Numbered from the stretch's first letter, positions 21,730 through 50,398 are shown. The stretch is DNA of 64,000 nucleotides from an uncultured Gammaproteobacteria bacterium (GCA_964408485.1 CAYOZJ010000003.1:65290-129289); one strand, 5' to 3'. Numbers and translations: made by a program. Notes: generated from the letters alone by a model not told the origin.

Positions 21730-21975
21730 ATGGCACATACAAAAGCAGGTGGATCAACAAATAATAATAGAGACTCAGTTGCAAAGCGCTTAGGCGTAAA
21801 GATTTATGGTGGACAACAGACAAAAGTTGGCAGTATTATTGTCCGCCAAAAAGGTACTAAATTTCACCCAGGGAAAAATGTAAAACTTGGAAAAGACTAC
21901 ACTATTTACGCAATGACAGAAGGAAAAGTGGCATTTCGAGCAGCAAAAGGTAAAGCAGTTGTTGATGTAGTATAA
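21730..21975 (+). CDS. rpmA: 50S ribosomal protein L27
   Basis: [24 protein letters not shown] is the canonical L27 N-terminus. Confidence 0.9.
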
Positions 21976-22808
21976 TGGACGAAGAAAGAATTTACGAATT
22001 AGAAGCAAGTGTTATTCAGTTTAACCCCCTTCAGCCACGAGGCGCTATTTCACCAGATTCTCTTAATGAGTTAGTTGATTCCATTCGTGAGCAAGGAATT
22101 CTTGAGCCCTTAGTTGTTGCTAAGACACCAGCTGGATATCAATTGATTGCAGGAGAGCGTCGTCTTCGAGCAGCGAAGGTATTGGGTCTTGAGAAAGTAC
22201 CTGTTGTTGTTAAGGTTACTACTCCTCAAGGCATACTCGAAATGTCTATTGTTGAAAACGTACAGCGTGAAGACCTTAATCCAATAGAAAAAGCTTTAGC
22301 ATACAAGAGGCTTATCGATGAATTTGGTCTTGGGACAAATGAAGTAGCGCGTCGTGTTGGTAAATCTGCGCCTGCAGTCAGCAATACAATTCGCCTTCTC
22401 TCATTGCCCGATGCAATTAAAGATGCGCTTGTTGCAGGAGTAATTACCGAAGGACACGTACGACCACTTATTTCTCTTGGAGATCCAACCCTTATGCTGG
22501 ATTTATTTAAGAAAATCCTCAGGGAAAATAGTACAGTGCGCCAAACAGAAGAAATGGCACGAAAAATTAAGGCAACAGTTGAGAAAAAAGATCCACATTC
22601 GGTAAAGACAAAAATCTATATTCCTGAGCTTTTAGAAATGGCAGAGCAACTTAAGAAGACATTAGAATTGGACGCTGTTGACCTCTTTCAGACTCAGAAA
22701 AAGGCTAGATTTGTTATAGAAATGAAAGGGACACCTGAGCTGACAACACCAAAAATAAAAGATTTAGTTGCAAAGTTAGGTGGAGAAGTTAAAGAAACTT
22801 CAGTATAA
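21975..22808 (+). CDS. parB: ParB/Spo0J-like partition protein
   Basis: ParB box LIAGERRLRAAK and an HTH region (NEVARRVGKSAPAVSNTIRLL); TAATG overlap with rpmA. Confidence 0.8.
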   Translation: MDEERIYELEASVIQFNPLQPRGAISPDSLNELVDSIREQGILEPLVVAKTPAGYQLIAGERRLRAAKVLGLEKVPVVVKVTTPQGILEMSIVENVQREDLNPIEKALAYKRLIDEFGLGTNEVARRVGKSAPAVSNTIRLLSLPDAIKDALVAGVITEGHVRPLISLGDPTLMLDLFKKILRENSTVRQTEEMARKIKATVEKKDPHSVKTKIYIPELLEMAEQLKKTLELDAVDLFQTQKKARFVIEMKGTPELTTPKIKDLVAKLGGEVKETSV

Positions 22809-23410: not shown

Positions 23411-23439
23411 TTGTCAACGATGGTTATTTCTGGTAAAAT
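23411..23439 (+). promoter_or_regulatory. sigma70-like promoter for tRNA-Val: TTGTCA, 17-nt spacer, TAAAAT
   Basis: TTGTCAacgatggttatttctggTAAAAT ends 10 nt before the tRNA 5' end; its -35 box overlaps a face-to-face TTGACA on the minus strand. Confidence 0.5.
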
Positions 23440-23449
23440 CGAAGCTATT

Positions 23450-23523
23450 GGATCTGTAGTTCAGTTGGTTAGAACGTTCGATTCACATTCGAAAGGTCAG
23501 AGGTTCGAGTCCTCTCAGGTCCA
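23450..23523 (+). tRNA. tRNA-Val (anticodon CAC); CCA not encoded
   Basis: Hand-folded: acceptor GGATCTG/CAGGTCC, D-arm GTTC-AGTTGGTTA-GAAC, anticodon arm TTCGA-TTCACAT-TCGAA, T-arm AGAGG-TTCGAGT-CCTCT. Confidence 0.8.
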
Positions 23524-23529
23524 CTGAAA

Positions 23530-23563
23530 AAGTTTTTTGCCCTTGGGCAAGAAACTTTTTATT
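23530..23563 (+). terminator. rho-independent terminator-like hairpin after tRNA-Val
   Basis: agttttttgccc ttg ggcaagaaact forms a 12-bp stem with one mismatch, followed by TTTTTATT. Confidence 0.5.
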
Positions 23564-23645
23564 AGCACTTAGGACTCGAATGGCGGACTGAAGCGAAGCG
23601 TAAGGAGCCGGGGTCGCGAGGGTCGCCGCTGCGACAACTTGTGAC

Positions 23646-23665
23646 CGAGTCCTCTCAGGTCCACT
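23646..23665 (+). repeat. 20-bp perfect direct repeat of the tRNA-Val 3' end (CGAGTCCTCTCAGGTCCACT); att-like
   Basis: Identical to 23506-23525 within the tRNA; the copies are separated by the terminator hairpin and a GC-rich structured segment (23566-23640) containing a gaagcgaagcg motif. Confidence 0.65.
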
Positions 23666-23733
23666 TGTCTCAGGCTTTCCGCCGTAGTTTTAGCAAAGGA
23701 GGATTCGAGGCCTGATTGGTCCACAGAAAGCTA

Positions 23734-24231
23734 TTATGTTTTGGGATTAGGTTTCTTACCCCGTTTCCCTGGCAAGTCATAGTCCCTTCGTAGCCTATAC
23801 CTTGTTGTCGGAGGCATAGGCGTGGTGTTGACGAAGGCTGCTCTTTCATCCTGAGGAAGTGCGTCTAGTGCATTGTGCAATCTTTGGATTTCTCCTCTTT
23901 TGGGTAGTCCAGGCGGTTTGGGAGTAAATCCATATTCCCTAAGTAACCTTGTTCTTAGGGTGGAAGGAGCATGCGCACTATAAATATATGCCTCTTTTTC
24001 ATCTTGAGGAAGTGCATCTAGCGTTTCTCGCAATTCTTGGGTTTTCCCCCTTCTCGGGCTACCCCTTCTTGGCCTAACATCAATCTCATATTGTCTACTT
24101 AACCTTCTTCTGGTCTCATGATGCAATGGAAGTGTAGCAAGTATTTGTCTTCTTTCATCCTCTGATTTTCCAACAAGAAGTGCCTCAGCCTCGCTTTTAG
24201 ACATATATGGAGATTCAAGATTATCTGTCAT
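23734..24231 (-). CDS. hypothetical basic protein with two internal ~45-aa repeats
   Basis: Repeats ELRETLDALPQDEKEAY...LRTRLLREYGF and RLHNALDALPQDERAAF...RYRLRRDYDL; TATAAT 7 nt upstream of the ATG. Confidence 0.4.
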   Translation of the reverse strand: MTDNLESPYMSKSEAEALLVGKSEDERRQILATLPLHHETRRRLSRQYEIDVRPRRGSPRRGKTQELRETLDALPQDEKEAYIYSAHAPSTLRTRLLREYGFTPKPPGLPKRGEIQRLHNALDALPQDERAAFVNTTPMPPTTRYRLRRDYDLPGKRGKKPNPKT

Positions 24232-24303
24232 TTTGGGAATTATACTTCACCCATAATGTTGTTGCAACAAACGTTAAAGATAATTTACGATTGAATCCAA
24301 ATA

Positions 24304-24375
24304 TCCATAAGAGTTCAGTTGGTAGAGGCTTCATTCACATTGAAGAGGTCTCAGGTTCGAGTTCTGATGGGACCA
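24304..24375 (+). tRNA. tRNA-like sequence, Val-like (CAC anticodon loop); the 5' acceptor strand cannot be paired, so this may be a pseudo or partial tRNA
   Basis: D-loop GTTCAGTTGGTAGAGG, anticodon arm CTTCA-TTCACAT-TGAAG, T-arm TCAGG-TTCGAGT-TCTGA, 3' acceptor TGGGACC-A. The stems differ from the tRNA at 23450 by compensatory changes, but there is no complementary 5' strand. Confidence 0.3.
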
Positions 24376-24377
24376 CA

Positions 24378-26114
24378 CTAATGAGTAAGAAGGTATGTAA
24401 TATCACTAACAAGTGTTTGGTAGACTGTATCAGAAATTGTGTGATTACCATTCCAAATAATAAGCTTTATTAGTAGTTCTGCAAGTTCTATTTTCTCTTG
24501 AACAATGTGGTGTTTGTCATATTGATTTTTTGCATCATTAATTTGATCAAGCAGTTCATGACAAGTATTCTTCTTGATTTGATTTTGTTGGCAAAAAGTA
24601 TTTATGTCAGTATACATATTGTCAAAAACACTCTGTTTCTTAATTGAATCTTGTTTGTCATTGGTTTTGGTGTAGTTGATGGTGAAGTTGTCGGGATTAT
24701 TCTGATTGCCAGAACCTGCAAGATCAAAAACCTGGACATTTCCTGACGTGTCATAAACGTATGCCTGCGCATCGTACGGGGTGTTAGAAGCATTAGTAAT
24801 TGTTAGATTGTAGATATCGTTTCCAGGTTGAGTTAGATAAAAAAGCTTTATTGGTAAACCGCTTAAAAGTGACGGATTTGTTGGGTTACTTAGGGGTTGT
24901 TGTACGAATTCTTCACCAACTGCGCTTCCTGAGGAATTTTTCATACTAAAGTCTAATCCCAAAGGTCCAACAAGTAAAATATAAGAAAGATCTGTGTGAG
25001 AAGGAATAAAACGTCCTAAAGTTAAAAAGGTATTATTGTATCCATCATTGAGAGTATTCCTGGAGAAATATGGGTCATTAATTGTAAAGGTTGTTCCACT
25101 TGTGCCTGTTGCAACAACAAAATGCCCAGGTTGCTCGAGAATATCTGGATGATTATTCTGTAAGTCACTGAGCAAGGTAACTTTATCTGCATTTTTTACC
25201 CTTTTATATTCCAACGCATCAGCAGTAAATCCTGGGTTATTAAAAGCAAGTTTGACAAGTTGGGTAAAACGTTGGAGTGCAAGCCAGTTAACAAGTCCAT
25301 TGCCAACATATCCGTCTTTTTGTGACTTAAGCCATGTATTAAGTGTTCCGGGATTAAGAGGGCTATTGTCTGGCATCTTGGTAATGCCGTTATATTGTAA
25401 AACCATTGCAGCAGATGTAACAGCACATCCCCAGATATTAATACTTGAATTACCTGGAGACCACTTATTTGCGCTGTCATATAATTGTGATTGCCAGGGG
25501 TTAGATGTCTGCTTAAGAGAGGGAACAGAGAGATGAATGTCAGAGATTGGAAGCGTATCAATAACCAGCATATTAGTAATTATTGTTCCGGATTTTGCCT
25601 CAAAACCAAAATATCCTCCTGTATGACCTGAATAAACTTTAGTACCGATCAATGAAGAATCTAGATAGAATGAATATGTGTCAGTGTTTTTGCAAATCTT
25701 GTAATTATGAAAACTTCCCATGCCTGGAGTATTAACTCCGAGATCAATGTCGGTAGAATTTGATGCATATGCATGCAGATGTCCATCACTTACACCTAGA
25801 GTTCCTGATGCTGCAAAACCAACCCATGATGTATAGTTTCCATCTGCGAAAAATATACCATCCCTAATATTATGTATATCTATATTTGCCGAAATACACT
25901 TCATGGTTGGGAGAGTCGTAGTGTAGAAAGCGTCAGTTCCTGTACATGTTAAACCAGATGCGCTGGGTGAACATGTACCAAATGTTTCGCTGAAACCTGA
26001 ATAGTTTAATGTAAAATCATTGGAGTATAGGGTTGCAGCTAGTGACGTTGAAGGAAAAGTAAGAAACAGAACGAATAGTAAAAGTATCTTTGGTAGCAGA
26101 TAATTTTTTTTCAC
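24378..26114 (-). CDS. secreted protein with an N-terminal ConA/LamG-like lectin domain and a central papain-like (C39-like) cysteine peptidase domain
   Basis: Signal peptide MKKNYLLPKILLLFVLFLTFPSTSLA; Cys motif WGCAVTSAAMVL typical of the C39-like peptidase fold; beta-rich Asn/Thr-rich C-terminus. Domain calls are tentative. Confidence 0.45.
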   Translation of the reverse strand: MKKNYLLPKILLLFVLFLTFPSTSLAATLYSNDFTLNYSGFSETFGTCSPSASGLTCTGTDAFYTTTLPTMKCISANIDIHNIRDGIFFADGNYTSWVGFAASGTLGVSDGHLHAYASNSTDIDLGVNTPGMGSFHNYKICKNTDTYSFYLDSSLIGTKVYSGHTGGYFGFEAKSGTIITNMLVIDTLPISDIHLSVPSLKQTSNPWQSQLYDSANKWSPGNSSINIWGCAVTSAAMVLQYNGITKMPDNSPLNPGTLNTWLKSQKDGYVGNGLVNWLALQRFTQLVKLAFNNPGFTADALEYKRVKNADKVTLLSDLQNNHPDILEQPGHFVVATGTSGTTFTINDPYFSRNTLNDGYNNTFLTLGRFIPSHTDLSYILLVGPLGLDFSMKNSSGSAVGEEFVQQPLSNPTNPSLLSGLPIKLFYLTQPGNDIYNLTITNASNTPYDAQAYVYDTSGNVQVFDLAGSGNQNNPDNFTINYTKTNDKQDSIKKQSVFDNMYTDINTFCQQNQIKKNTCHELLDQINDAKNQYDKHHIVQEKIELAELLIKLIIWNGNHTISDTVYQTLVSDITYLLTH

Positions 26115-26902
26115 AATTAAACAACTTAGTTTATATTACCATCACTTTTGTGTTTAATGTCAAGTGGTATTCATTATTGTGTAGATACTATGGATACTGT
26201 ATTATTTCCTCTATGATTAAATACCAAGGTTTATCTACATTGGAAATTCTTGAAGTTGCAAAAAATTATAATAAGTGGATTGCGGAGCAGTGTCTACAAC
26301 ATATTAAATCACCGCTTTTAGAAGTTGGGTCTGGTACTGGAAATATTAGCAAATTCTTTTTGAGTAAGAAGGGAGTGACGCTAAGCGATATTGATGCAGG
26401 ACTTGTAAAAACGTTAAAAAAGAAGTTTTCTCAGAAATCTGTATCTATTCAAAAAATAGATATTTCAAAAAAATTAACAAAAAGAAATAAATATCAGACA
26501 ATAGTTGCCATTAATGTGTTAGAGCACATCCAAGATGACAAAAAAGCAATTAAAAATATGCATGCGCTTTTACAAAAAGGAGGAAAAATAATACTTCTCG
26601 TGCCAGCTAAAAAGTTTGCTTATACAGAATTTGATAGACTTCTTGGACATCATCGCAGATACGAAAAAGAAAAGTTAAAAAAGTTAACTGAAAAATCCGG
26701 ATTTATTACAGAAAAGATTTATTACTTTAACTTTGTTGGGCTGTGGAGTTGGATACTTCGTAGTAAGATGGAAAAATCACATAGTCTAAAACCATACCAA
26801 GTTGCTATATTCGATAAAATTGTTCCATATCTAAAAGTTATAGAAAAAGTAATACCGGTTCCGGTTGGTGTATCGCTTATTCTAGTTGGAGTTAAGAAGT
26901 AA
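26090..26902 (+). CDS. class I SAM-dependent methyltransferase (true start probably near 26212)
   Basis: Motif I LLEVGSGTGNIS, motif II IVAINVLEHI, motif post-II LLQKGGKIILLVP. Confidence 0.6.
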   Translation: MVADNFFSQLNNLVYITITFVFNVKWYSLLCRYYGYCIISSMIKYQGLSTLEILEVAKNYNKWIAEQCLQHIKSPLLEVGSGTGNISKFFLSKKGVTLSDIDAGLVKTLKKKFSQKSVSIQKIDISKKLTKRNKYQTIVAINVLEHIQDDKKAIKNMHALLQKGGKIILLVPAKKFAYTEFDRLLGHHRRYEKEKLKKLTEKSGFITEKIYYFNFVGLWSWILRSKMEKSHSLKPYQVAIFDKIVPYLKVIEKVIPVPVGVSLILVGVKK

Positions 26903-50288: not shown

Positions 50289-50325
50289 AGTTTTATTGCA
50301 TAACCAGGCGCAGGATTGTGTCTAG

Positions 50326-50398
50326 AGCCGATGGTGAGGATCGAACTCACTACCTACGCTTTACGAAAGCGCCGCTCTGCCAATTGAGCTACATCGGC
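50326..50398 (-). tRNA. tRNA-Thr (anticodon CGT); CCA not encoded
   Basis: Minus-strand fold: acceptor GCCGATG/CATCGGC, D-arm GCTC-AATTGGCA-GAGC, anticodon arm GCGCT-TTCGTAA-AGCGT, T-arm GTGAG-TTCGATC-CTCAC. Confidence 0.85.

Follow-up and report, generated by a model that had tools for sequence, protein, structure and literature searches.

What entered the genome beside a tRNA-Val(CAC) gene, and by what route, is the question raised by a 64,000-nucleotide stretch of assembly GCA_964408485.1 (CAYOZJ010000003.1:65290-129289). The whole of this stretch is called the window here, and positions are counted from its first letter. The gene is intact and is followed by direct repeats of its own 3' part, which is the textbook signature of an island brought in by a tRNA-targeting integrase. 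The initial annotation read it in this way, as the footprint of an integrative element at tRNA-Val. We favor, with moderate confidence, a different account. The locus would consist of layered remnants left as tRNA-Val was replaced or inserted into time after time, with lineages differing reciprocally in the copy that decayed and with an orphan DNA-binding-like gene as cargo.

Insertion at the tRNA-Val(CAC) Locus

The locus, from the promoter of the intact gene to its ancestral downstream neighbor, contains the following features (the gene between fragments B and C is listed further below).

23411..23439, plus strand: promoter-like site of tRNA-Val (TTGTCA, 17-nucleotide (nt) spacer, TAAAAT, TG extension)
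23450..23524, plus strand: intact tRNA-Val(CAC), W-type allele (ARAGORN; Rfam tRNA model, 72.2 bits; CCA unencoded)
23527..23560, strand not assigned: terminator-like hairpin of 16 bp, 94% complementary, directly 3' of the intact tRNA-Val
23561..23645, plus strand: GC-rich non-coding filler, about 53-60% GC, no homologue found, no significant fold
23646..23665, plus strand: fragment A, exact repeat of positions 56-73 of tRNA-Val and the 2 nt that follow (repeat finder, 20-mer search, profile)
23666..23700, plus strand: spacer of 35 nt with CAGGCTTTCCGCC (at 23671)
23701..23725, plus strand: fragment B, diverged tRNA-Val 3' end from T-loop to discriminator, GGATTCGAGGCCTGATTGGTCCACA (repeat finder, profile)
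24312..24376, plus strand: fragment C, positions 9-73 of a C-type tRNA-Val(CAC) in decay
24378..26114, minus strand: C39-like secreted peptidase gene, ancestral downstream neighbor; right edge of the insert, outside it

The ParB protein of the window (21975-22808) has relatives of 70-93% identity in metagenome-assembled genomes of Levybacteria/Microgenomates, and the genome is that of a member of the Levybacteria, in the candidate phyla radiation (CPR). About 60 Levybacteria loci formed the comparison set. The order ParB, LepB (opposite strand), tRNA-Val(CAC) is found in most of about 45 such loci, and the ancestral order is LepB, tRNA-Val, C39-like peptidase gene. In five relatives (L009, L018, L019, L020, and L033) the site is empty and uninterrupted, with tRNA-Val lying 11-23 nt from the 3' end of the C39-like gene. 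In the window, the peptidase stop codon starts 1 nt past fragment C. The intact tRNA retains the ancestral LepB spacing and the conserved upstream promoter block, including the TTTGTCAA box that is kept across relatives. Because fragment C stands at the ancestral spot while the intact tRNA keeps its spacing from LepB, an insertion of about 0.85 kb separates the working tRNA from the ancestral tRNA position. The empty sites in relatives bear out the foreign insertion at tRNA-Val that had been proposed, with the tRNA-like repeats as its footprint.

The hairpin between the intact tRNA and fragment A had been annotated as a terminator, and a GC-containing hairpin followed by a T run, as in intrinsic terminators, is indeed present. 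A terminator scan calls the minus strand, and T runs are found both within the stem and beside it on both strands.

A Second tRNA-Val Allele in Decay

Fragment C is a partial gene and not a second tRNA. A tRNA-Val profile made from 44 Levybacteria tRNA-Val genes and run on all loci finds it at 24312-24376 (positions 9-73, E=1.3e-12). Rfam gives it 20.4 bits over model positions 9-63, against a gathering score of 29, and ARAGORN calls no tRNA there. One nt is missing from its D stem, and the 5' acceptor strand is lost or scrambled. Significant tRNA likeness, a sub-threshold score, and an incomplete cloverleaf place it among tRNA pseudogenes or fragments. The second tRNA-like sequence of the initial annotation is therefore real, is incomplete, and is no canonical tRNA of another isotype.

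This sequence had been taken for a duplicate of the present tRNA with compensatory changes. Its identity to the window's own tRNA is 52/64 (81%, with four gaps), versus 58/64 (91%) to the allele of L203 and 56/64 (88%) to the allele common to L006, L200, L201, and L202. The two tRNA-Val(CAC) alleles at this locus are distinct, with fully compensated stems. The C-type allele is the working tRNA-Val at the locus in L006, L200/L201, L202, and L203. The W-type allele of the window is also found in L005, L007, L013, and L204, the last being partial, as its contig stops at tRNA position 54. Both alleles are present among the nearest relatives; LepB identity to the window is 80-84% in L006 and L200-L203, and about 86% in the nearest match, L204. 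The tRNA of L006 and its flank can be aligned to fragment C and to about 28 nt after it, and L006 keeps a remnant of the peptidase C-terminus after the tRNA (IYQVFIEDITHIVTY, compared with VYQTLVSDITYLLTH in the window). On the basis of the allele identity, the flank alignment, and this peptidase remnant, fragment C is the orthologue of a gene that still works in sister lineages.

Short 3' Fragments and GC-Rich Filler

The perfect 20-bp copy of the tRNA 3' end that drew attention to the locus was confirmed. The 20-mer CGAGTCCTCTCAGGTCCACT occurs at 23506-23525 (the tRNA ends at 23524) and again at 23646-23665, and it spans T-loop C56 to the discriminator base plus 2 nt. No third copy exists in the 64 kb with up to 3 mismatches allowed, and 0/100 shuffles matched. 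Outside the window it was seen exclusively as a tRNA 3' end, and so it is not a dispersed repeat. Fragment B had been overlooked, and the number of 3' fragments is three rather than two. The allele from which fragment B came carried CCTGA as the 3' strand of its T-stem. When run on the 786-nt insert alone, the profile assigns fragment A to positions 55-73 (E=0.02) and fragment B to positions 51-73 (E=0.055). Fragments A, B, and C are all in direct orientation, and each finishes exactly at the tRNA 3' terminus. The repeat intervals after the intact tRNA are 120, 40, and 580 bp.

The filler contains the motifs GGACTCG (23572-23578), ATGGCGGAC (23580-23588), and GCGAAGC (23593-23599). The last of these, a heptamer, forms a very stable DNA mini-hairpin. 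Three unrelated loci have it 60-90 nt beyond the 3' end of tRNA-Val, namely the window, L027:11023, and L023:11610 (minus strand). This makes 3 observed occurrences near the tRNA versus about 0.2 expected, the background in these loci being about 1 per 23 kb. The enrichment may merely mirror the GC-rich filler. The 778-bp insert as a whole gave no match in relatives or in the phage and plasmid databases.

Proposed Successive Replacement with Reciprocal Loss

The lineages in which the C-type allele works carry remnants of their own on the promoter side. Between the conserved promoter and the C-type tRNA there are 75 extra nt in L200/L201 and 44 in L006, and these segments are mutually homologous. 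The L200 segment opens with a GTTCAGT-containing stretch where a tRNA would begin. It closes with ...CACTTTGAAAAAGTTAGTCCCCTTGTGGGAAAGGA, which resembles ...CCACTGAAAAAGTTTTTTGCCCTTGGGCAAGAAAC of the window, that is, the tRNA 3' end and terminator. Sequence similar to the 23527-23560 hairpin (TGAAAAAGTT...) persists upstream of the C-type tRNA in L200. The exact 10-mer match between the L200 segment and the window terminator was reached in 21/1000 shuffles. L200 and L006 have a short collapsed remnant, which includes TGAAAAAGTT, where the window has a working W-type gene and a terminator. We also considered the extra 44 nt of L006 as a relic of the window's insert; they show no significant similarity to it and are homologous to the L200 remnant instead. 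In L202 and L203 the C-type tRNA stands directly at the promoter, and L202 carries two more 3' fragments beyond it. About a quarter of the Levybacteria loci examined have additional tRNA-Val pieces or nested copies at this place (L012, L014, L021, L022, L023, L035, L055, L060, L089, L090, L093, and L202).

The similarities between these segments suggest an ancestor in which both alleles stood in tandem. In the account that we favor, DNA with a second tRNA-Val would have been inserted at the resident gene. The common ancestor would then have carried the W-type tRNA, the terminator, the C-type tRNA, and the peptidase gene in tandem. The window lineage would have kept the W-type gene while the C-type gene decayed, and the L200/L006 lineage would have done the reverse. 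In the window lineage a further 740 bp or so now separates the terminator from the C-type copy, which lacks its first 8 nt or so. This segment contains the filler, fragments A and B, and the promoter-bearing orphan gene. Fragments A and B could be the 3' ends of yet other tRNA-Val copies. Such insertions would be harmless, since a working tRNA-Val would always be retained on the promoter side, and the displaced copies would simply decay. The responsible enzyme is not encoded at the locus; candidates are an integrase supplied in trans and whatever agent gave rise to the nested tRNA cassettes of related CPR genomes described below.

Several points weigh against this account. The similarity on which the tandem ancestor rests is short and weakly significant, with p about 0.02 for the terminator match. 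Fragment B, taken alone, is marginally significant (E=0.055). The neighbor-joining tree of ParB+LepB has short internal branches, and independent replacements in each lineage would yield similar patterns. The motifs that link the filler to the nested cassettes (ATGGCGG, CAGGCTTT) were picked post hoc. Every related genome was assembled from metagenomes, and such assemblies often lose or collapse repeats and islands. Neither a recombinase nor a transposase nor an intact donor element turned up anywhere, so any mechanism of insertion is hypothetical.

Nested tRNA Cassettes in Related Genomes

Some of the related loci show a tRNA gene placed within another. The loci concerned are as follows.

L060:11479-11654; L035:11472-11646; L014:11529-11749; L022:1791-1970; L012:11480-11640: nested tRNA-Val(CAC) loci
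L089, L090, and L093, minus strand of the locus as stored, upstream of LepB: nested tRNA-Val(CAC) loci
L064:8380-8560; L064:18520-18800 (minus strand): tRNA regions of L064

In L060, L035, L014, L012, and L093, an older tRNA-Val is interrupted in its D arm by a complete tRNA-Val with flanks of 12-20 nt. The 5' piece of the older copy stands upstream of the complete tRNA, and the 3' remainder stands downstream of it. The same kind of insert is found at position 37/38 of an older tRNA-Val in L022, L089, and L090, and L014 has an additional 41-nt insert at position 37/38 that consists of a hairpin only. The cassette flanks are GC-rich and mutually complementary; they start with CC(Y)GCC... and mostly finish with ...GGCAGG. 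Compared with shuffles, the complementarity is modestly better in each case and very strongly so in L071. The per-case shuffle fractions, pooled by hand with Fisher's method, give about 2e-4. When the insert is removed, the outer copies fold into a cloverleaf, yet they have altered anticodons (CGT in L060, CGC in L035) or decayed stems. The arrangement extends to other tRNAs and to other CPR lineages. In the Paceibacterota locus L071:19300-19620 (minus strand), a tRNA-Ile(TAT) lies in the T-loop of an older tRNA-Ile between 8-bp perfect inverted flanks. In L064, a 5' fragment of tRNA-Leu(CAA), about 280 nt upstream of an intact tRNA-Leu, has its D arm broken by the perfect palindrome CCTGCCTGCCGGCAGGCAGG. 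A 16-nt 5' piece of tRNA-Ile that abuts a complete tRNA-Ile was also seen in L064.

The 20-nt palindrome CCTGCCTGCCGGCAGGCAGG has 43 copies in 35 stretches from IMG/VR, a public collection of viral contigs (L165-L199), on contigs of 38-68% GC; the chance expectation, by a hand estimate, is well under 1. Up to 4 copies occur in one 12-kb stretch (L185), and there are more across three stretches of one 29.5-kb contig. Further copies are at L027:6588, L032:3664, L067:8994, L077:3606, and L062:~690. One copy occupies the variable loop of a tRNA-Met that is otherwise intact (L189:2284), another a decayed form of this tRNA (L166:8616), and a third the D loop of a tRNA-like sequence (L196:515). Some copies have GTAG before them (L185). 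A sequencing or adapter artefact is unlikely: L166 and L189 carry the palindrome at the same tRNA position and have diverged further, and variant cassettes hold whole tRNAs. Searches of the literature on CPR tRNA introns, disrupted tRNAs, nested tRNA genes, and the palindrome itself yielded no description of these structures.

These observations might be explained by a tiny GC-rich palindromic mobile element of CPR bacteria and some phages, with CC(Y)GCC.../...GGCAGG ends and CCTGCCTGCCGGCAGGCAGG as its minimal form, that lands in tRNA loops. In single-copy essential tRNAs it would persist only with a complete replacement tRNA of the same anticodon, giving rise to tRNA genes nested within older, dead copies, and the locus in the window would be a decayed product. 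We put this forward tentatively and consider it rather unlikely. If it were true, tRNA alleles in reduced genomes would turn over by selfish 'replace-what-you-break' insertion and not by integrase islands. The window does not belong to the nested-cassette class (L060, L035, L014, L022, L089, L090, L093, and L071). It contains no CCTGCCTGCCGGCAGGCAGG and neither of the end motifs searched for (GGCGGGC/GCCCGCC), and its intact tRNA is not preceded by a 5' piece. It has weak echoes of the cassettes in ATGGCGGAC at 23580, in CAGGCTTTCCGCC at 23671, in an 8-bp inverted repeat (ATGGCGGA/TCCGCCGT), and in a match to CAGGCTTT. The resemblance of CAGGCTTTCCGCC to CAGGCTTTGCGGGCAGG, the right flank of the L089/L090 cassettes, is weak and was noticed post hoc.

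Other Explanations

Layered replacement has to be weighed against a classical origin by islands of tRNA-targeting tyrosine integrases. One or several of these would have entered at the 3' part of tRNA-Val, rebuilding the gene from attP and displacing the old 3' end each time. Later deletions would have taken the integrase and nearly all of the cargo, leaving fragments A, B, and C as attachment (att) scars with one passenger gene. Arrays of att sites in tandem are known, and some relatives have the empty site. Fragments A and B start in the T-loop (positions 55 and 51), which is reportedly a sublocation of integrase crossover. tRNA-gene fragments left by element integration are documented (PMC9897764). 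The searches for a recombinase were all negative. None was detected by Pfam in the open reading frames (ORFs) scanned between 23734 and 50288, in the stretch that leads to the next tRNA, and the integrase remnants expected downstream were not found among the ORFs of 24378-50288. The HxLRH box motif of tyrosine recombinases was likewise absent from all six reading frames of the whole window in a regular-expression scan. No recombinase motif was found beside tRNA-Val in the relatives scanned, and ten neighboring ORFs were negative in Pfam. The geometry also fits poorly, as the repeat intervals are tiny, and the 20-bp repeat that had been proposed as an attL/attR pair encloses only 120 bp. Fragment C, in turn, is a nearly complete and self-consistent copy of another allele that works in sister lineages, rather than a core repeat. 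The nested arrangement of the relatives (5' piece, complete tRNA, 3' piece) is impossible by integration of attP with attB. The presence of CGAGTCCTCTCAGGTCCACT in 4 IMG/VR contigs raised the possibility of a phage attP. This was rejected, because viral contigs hold the 20-mer only as the ordinary 3' end of phage tRNAs; the copies are the ends of tRNA-Ala(GGC) genes in tRNA arrays, plus a tRNA-like sequence in L001. This viral tRNA-like gene (L001:1163-1232) is identical to the window's tRNA-Val in its 3' 20 nt, has a CTA anticodon region (amber-suppressor-like) and an irregular loop, and is not called by ARAGORN. We regard the integrase explanation as doubtful but as a serious rival, which would still account for the T-loop starts of fragments A and B.

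Natural transformation is less probable still, and we consider it improbable. DNA with the whole tRNA-Val locus of a relative would have paired in LepB or the promoter and would have been joined illegitimately, by microhomology, inside the resident tRNA. The donor tRNA and its downstream DNA would thereby have been added in front of the resident copy. The W-type allele and the upstream region do resemble those of L005, L007, L013, and L204. The left junction is seamless, the right junction falls within the first 8 nt or so of the resident tRNA, and mobile-element genes would be unnecessary. However, searches across 5.8 billion protein clusters and 1.84 billion representatives brought up no donor with the filler or the orphan gene, and a break in similarity along LepB was not demonstrated. 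Fragments A and B are left unexplained, as are the inverted-repeat-flanked nested cassettes of the relatives.

Local tandem duplication of tRNA-Val, with divergence and unrelated later insertions between the copies, would account for two copies of the same anticodon in direct orientation 855 bp apart, but is very improbable: fragment C is nearer to the alleles of other genomes (88-91%) than to the neighboring gene (81%), its differences from that gene are fully compensated stems, and the W-type and C-type alleles each have a wide and separate distribution. Equally remote is a functional structured RNA formed by the GC-rich segment and the tRNA 3'-end copy, such as a tRNA-like or processing element from the tRNA trailer; GGACTCG can pair with CGAGTCC (23646-23652) around 67 enclosed nt, and GCGAAGC recurs past tRNA-Val in L023 and L027, but the terminator hairpin stands between the tRNA and the segment, no relative has a homologue of it, and we rejected the idea on the folding scores and on Rfam, where no family matched at E=10. 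The segment, initially annotated as GC-rich and structured, is GC-rich (53%), and its fold energy is no better than that of shuffles on either strand (z=-1.0 and +0.4).

Orphan Gene and Neighborhood

The layered remnants include one gene, on the strand opposite to the tRNA copies.

23734..24231, minus strand: orphan 165-aa basic protein with three repeats of about 50 aa, each predicted to form three helices
24239..24267, minus strand: promoter-like site of the orphan gene (TTGCAA, 17-nt spacer, TATAAT), near-consensus

The 165-aa ORF had been noted with two internal repeats; the ORF stands, and there are three repeats (z=16 for repeats 2 and 3, and z=7.6 for repeats 1 and 3). Its GC fractions at codon positions 1/2/3 are 0.53/0.48/0.31, and the third position of host genes is 0.27-0.33. 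The raised GC of the ORF arises from its content of Arg, Pro, Gly, and Ala. The AlphaFold2 model shows three three-helix units, with a mean pLDDT (predicted local distance difference test) of 74. The repeats, the host-like third-position GC, the promoter, and the model together make the ORF look like a real gene. The promoter finishes 7 nt ahead of the ATG, and the mRNA is therefore probably leaderless.

Searches with the orphan protein gave little. In Pfam, Sigma70_r4_2 scored 23.2 bits, under the cut-off of 25.7. Foldseek against the PDB gave no match at E<1 with the whole protein or with one repeat, and PHROGs gave nothing other than weak matches to families of unknown function. The protein itself was the only credible match when 5.8 billion protein clusters were searched with a word index and 1.84 billion representatives were scanned in full with HMMER. 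A 1604-aa repeat protein was judged spurious as a homologue, as its score was summed over 15 weak repeat matches. The contig index contains no record of the exact protein sequence. Our best guess is that it is a basic, tandem helix-turn-helix-like DNA-binding protein carried as a passenger or cargo.

The only other tRNA called in the window by ARAGORN and Rfam is tRNA-Thr(CGT) at 50325-50398 (minus strand). The AT-rich region downstream of the insert contains genes for glycosyltransferases, methyltransferases, sugar epimerases, YfhO/PMT-type membrane proteins, and an O-antigen-ligase-like protein. This secreted-protein and glycosylation region had been assigned to the island. Equivalent genes lie downstream of tRNA-Val in relatives, and because of this conservation the region is a variable but native neighbor and not island cargo. 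Within it, a gene for an S-adenosylmethionine-dependent methyltransferase (26090-26902) lies between the C39-like and DUF2142/PMT-like genes. It is absent from this position in L005, whose flanking genes are otherwise syntenic, and it is probably a further small indel in the glycosylation cluster.

Some relatives show other changes at this site. In L006, a 763-aa N6-DNA-methylase/HSDR_N protein, restriction-modification-like (L006:12277-14568), replaces the C39-like peptidase gene, of which a short C-terminal remnant adjoins the tRNA. Given this replacement, the flank of tRNA-Val is a hot spot of gene turnover. In L005 (11560-12298; identical in L085), a different insert of about 740 bp separates tRNA-Val from the peptidase gene. 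Two small orphan ORFs of 70 and 80 aa, neither with a Pfam match, lie in this insert, in which no tRNA fragment could be detected; it is an independent insertion at the same spot. L030:10565-10631 is a 3'-truncated pseudogene of tRNA-Val(CAC), and L037:11520-11582 is a pseudogene without the anticodon arm. ARAGORN found no intact tRNA-Val copy in the 12-16 kb around these two loci. The tRNA-Val(CAC) isoacceptor may be dispensable in such Levybacteria, or may be encoded elsewhere.

Implications for Annotation and tRNA Turnover

The locus is a small decayed insertion scar and not a large island, and it belongs to the known class of tRNA-gene fragment scars. Present evidence gives no ground for annotating the glycosylation cluster as horizontally acquired, and fragment C should not be labeled a tRNA. 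Across Levybacteria, tRNA-Val(CAC) appears to have been replaced repeatedly at one conserved locus, with two alleles, reciprocal loss, nested copies, and pseudogenes. Such repeated replacement is unexpected in organisms with minimal, single-copy tRNA sets, and it bears on how CPR genomes keep and exchange essential RNA genes. If the nested, palindrome-flanked cassettes are confirmed to be mobile, they would represent a new way into essential genes without killing the host.

Comparison with Known Systems

The palindrome CCTGCCTGCCGGCAGGCAGG and its variants resemble repetitive extragenic palindromic (REP) sequences and REPINs, or miniature inverted-repeat transposable elements (MITEs), in being multi-copy, GC-rich, and hairpin-forming, some copies being preceded by GTAG. 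The window differs in having no copy. To our knowledge, a complete tRNA between the arms and a preference for landing in tRNA loops are not described properties of any REP or MITE.

Mobile introns in tRNA genes, as well as split and tri-split tRNAs, are known from Archaea (Fujishima et al. 2009, 2010, as cited in PMC10714607). The related CPR loci (not the window) resemble them in having the D arm, position 37/38, and the T-loop as insertion sites. The CPR inserts are also closed by GC-rich complementary ends, like the helices of the archaeal introns and leaders. The CPR loci differ from these archaeal genes in that the hosts are Bacteria and in that an intact copy of the same tRNA lies inside or beside the insert. 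We considered introns of the archaeal bulge-helix-bulge type for the nested cassettes and rejected them as the main reading, as inspection showed no exon-intron pairing, no bulge-helix-bulge could be drawn, and the outer copies, with their mutated anticodons or decayed stems, look dead. These features, together with the intact copy, point to insertion of DNA rather than splicing.

The window resembles islands of P4-type tyrosine integrases in that an intact tRNA bounds one side, its 3' part recurs downstream in direct orientation (20/20 at 23646-23665), and relatives have an empty site. Two of its repeats begin in the T-loop, and the cargo is orphan and compositionally odd. It differs in that the element contains no recombinase gene and no integrase is present at the locus in any relative examined. 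The stretches between its repeats are 40-580 bp long, and the outermost repeat is nearly a whole tRNA of the other allele. The repeats do not bound the whole insert with one attP/attB core, as the perfect repeat spans only 120 bp.

Partial and non-canonical tRNA genes that element integration left behind have been catalogued in prokaryotes, the Thermococcaceae among them (van der Gulik et al. 2023, PMC9897764). Fragment C is of this kind, being tRNA-like and sub-threshold, lacking one acceptor strand, and standing beside a canonical gene of the same anticodon. The site in the window differs in having three layers, and in a turnover of alleles with reciprocal loss rather than a single integration.

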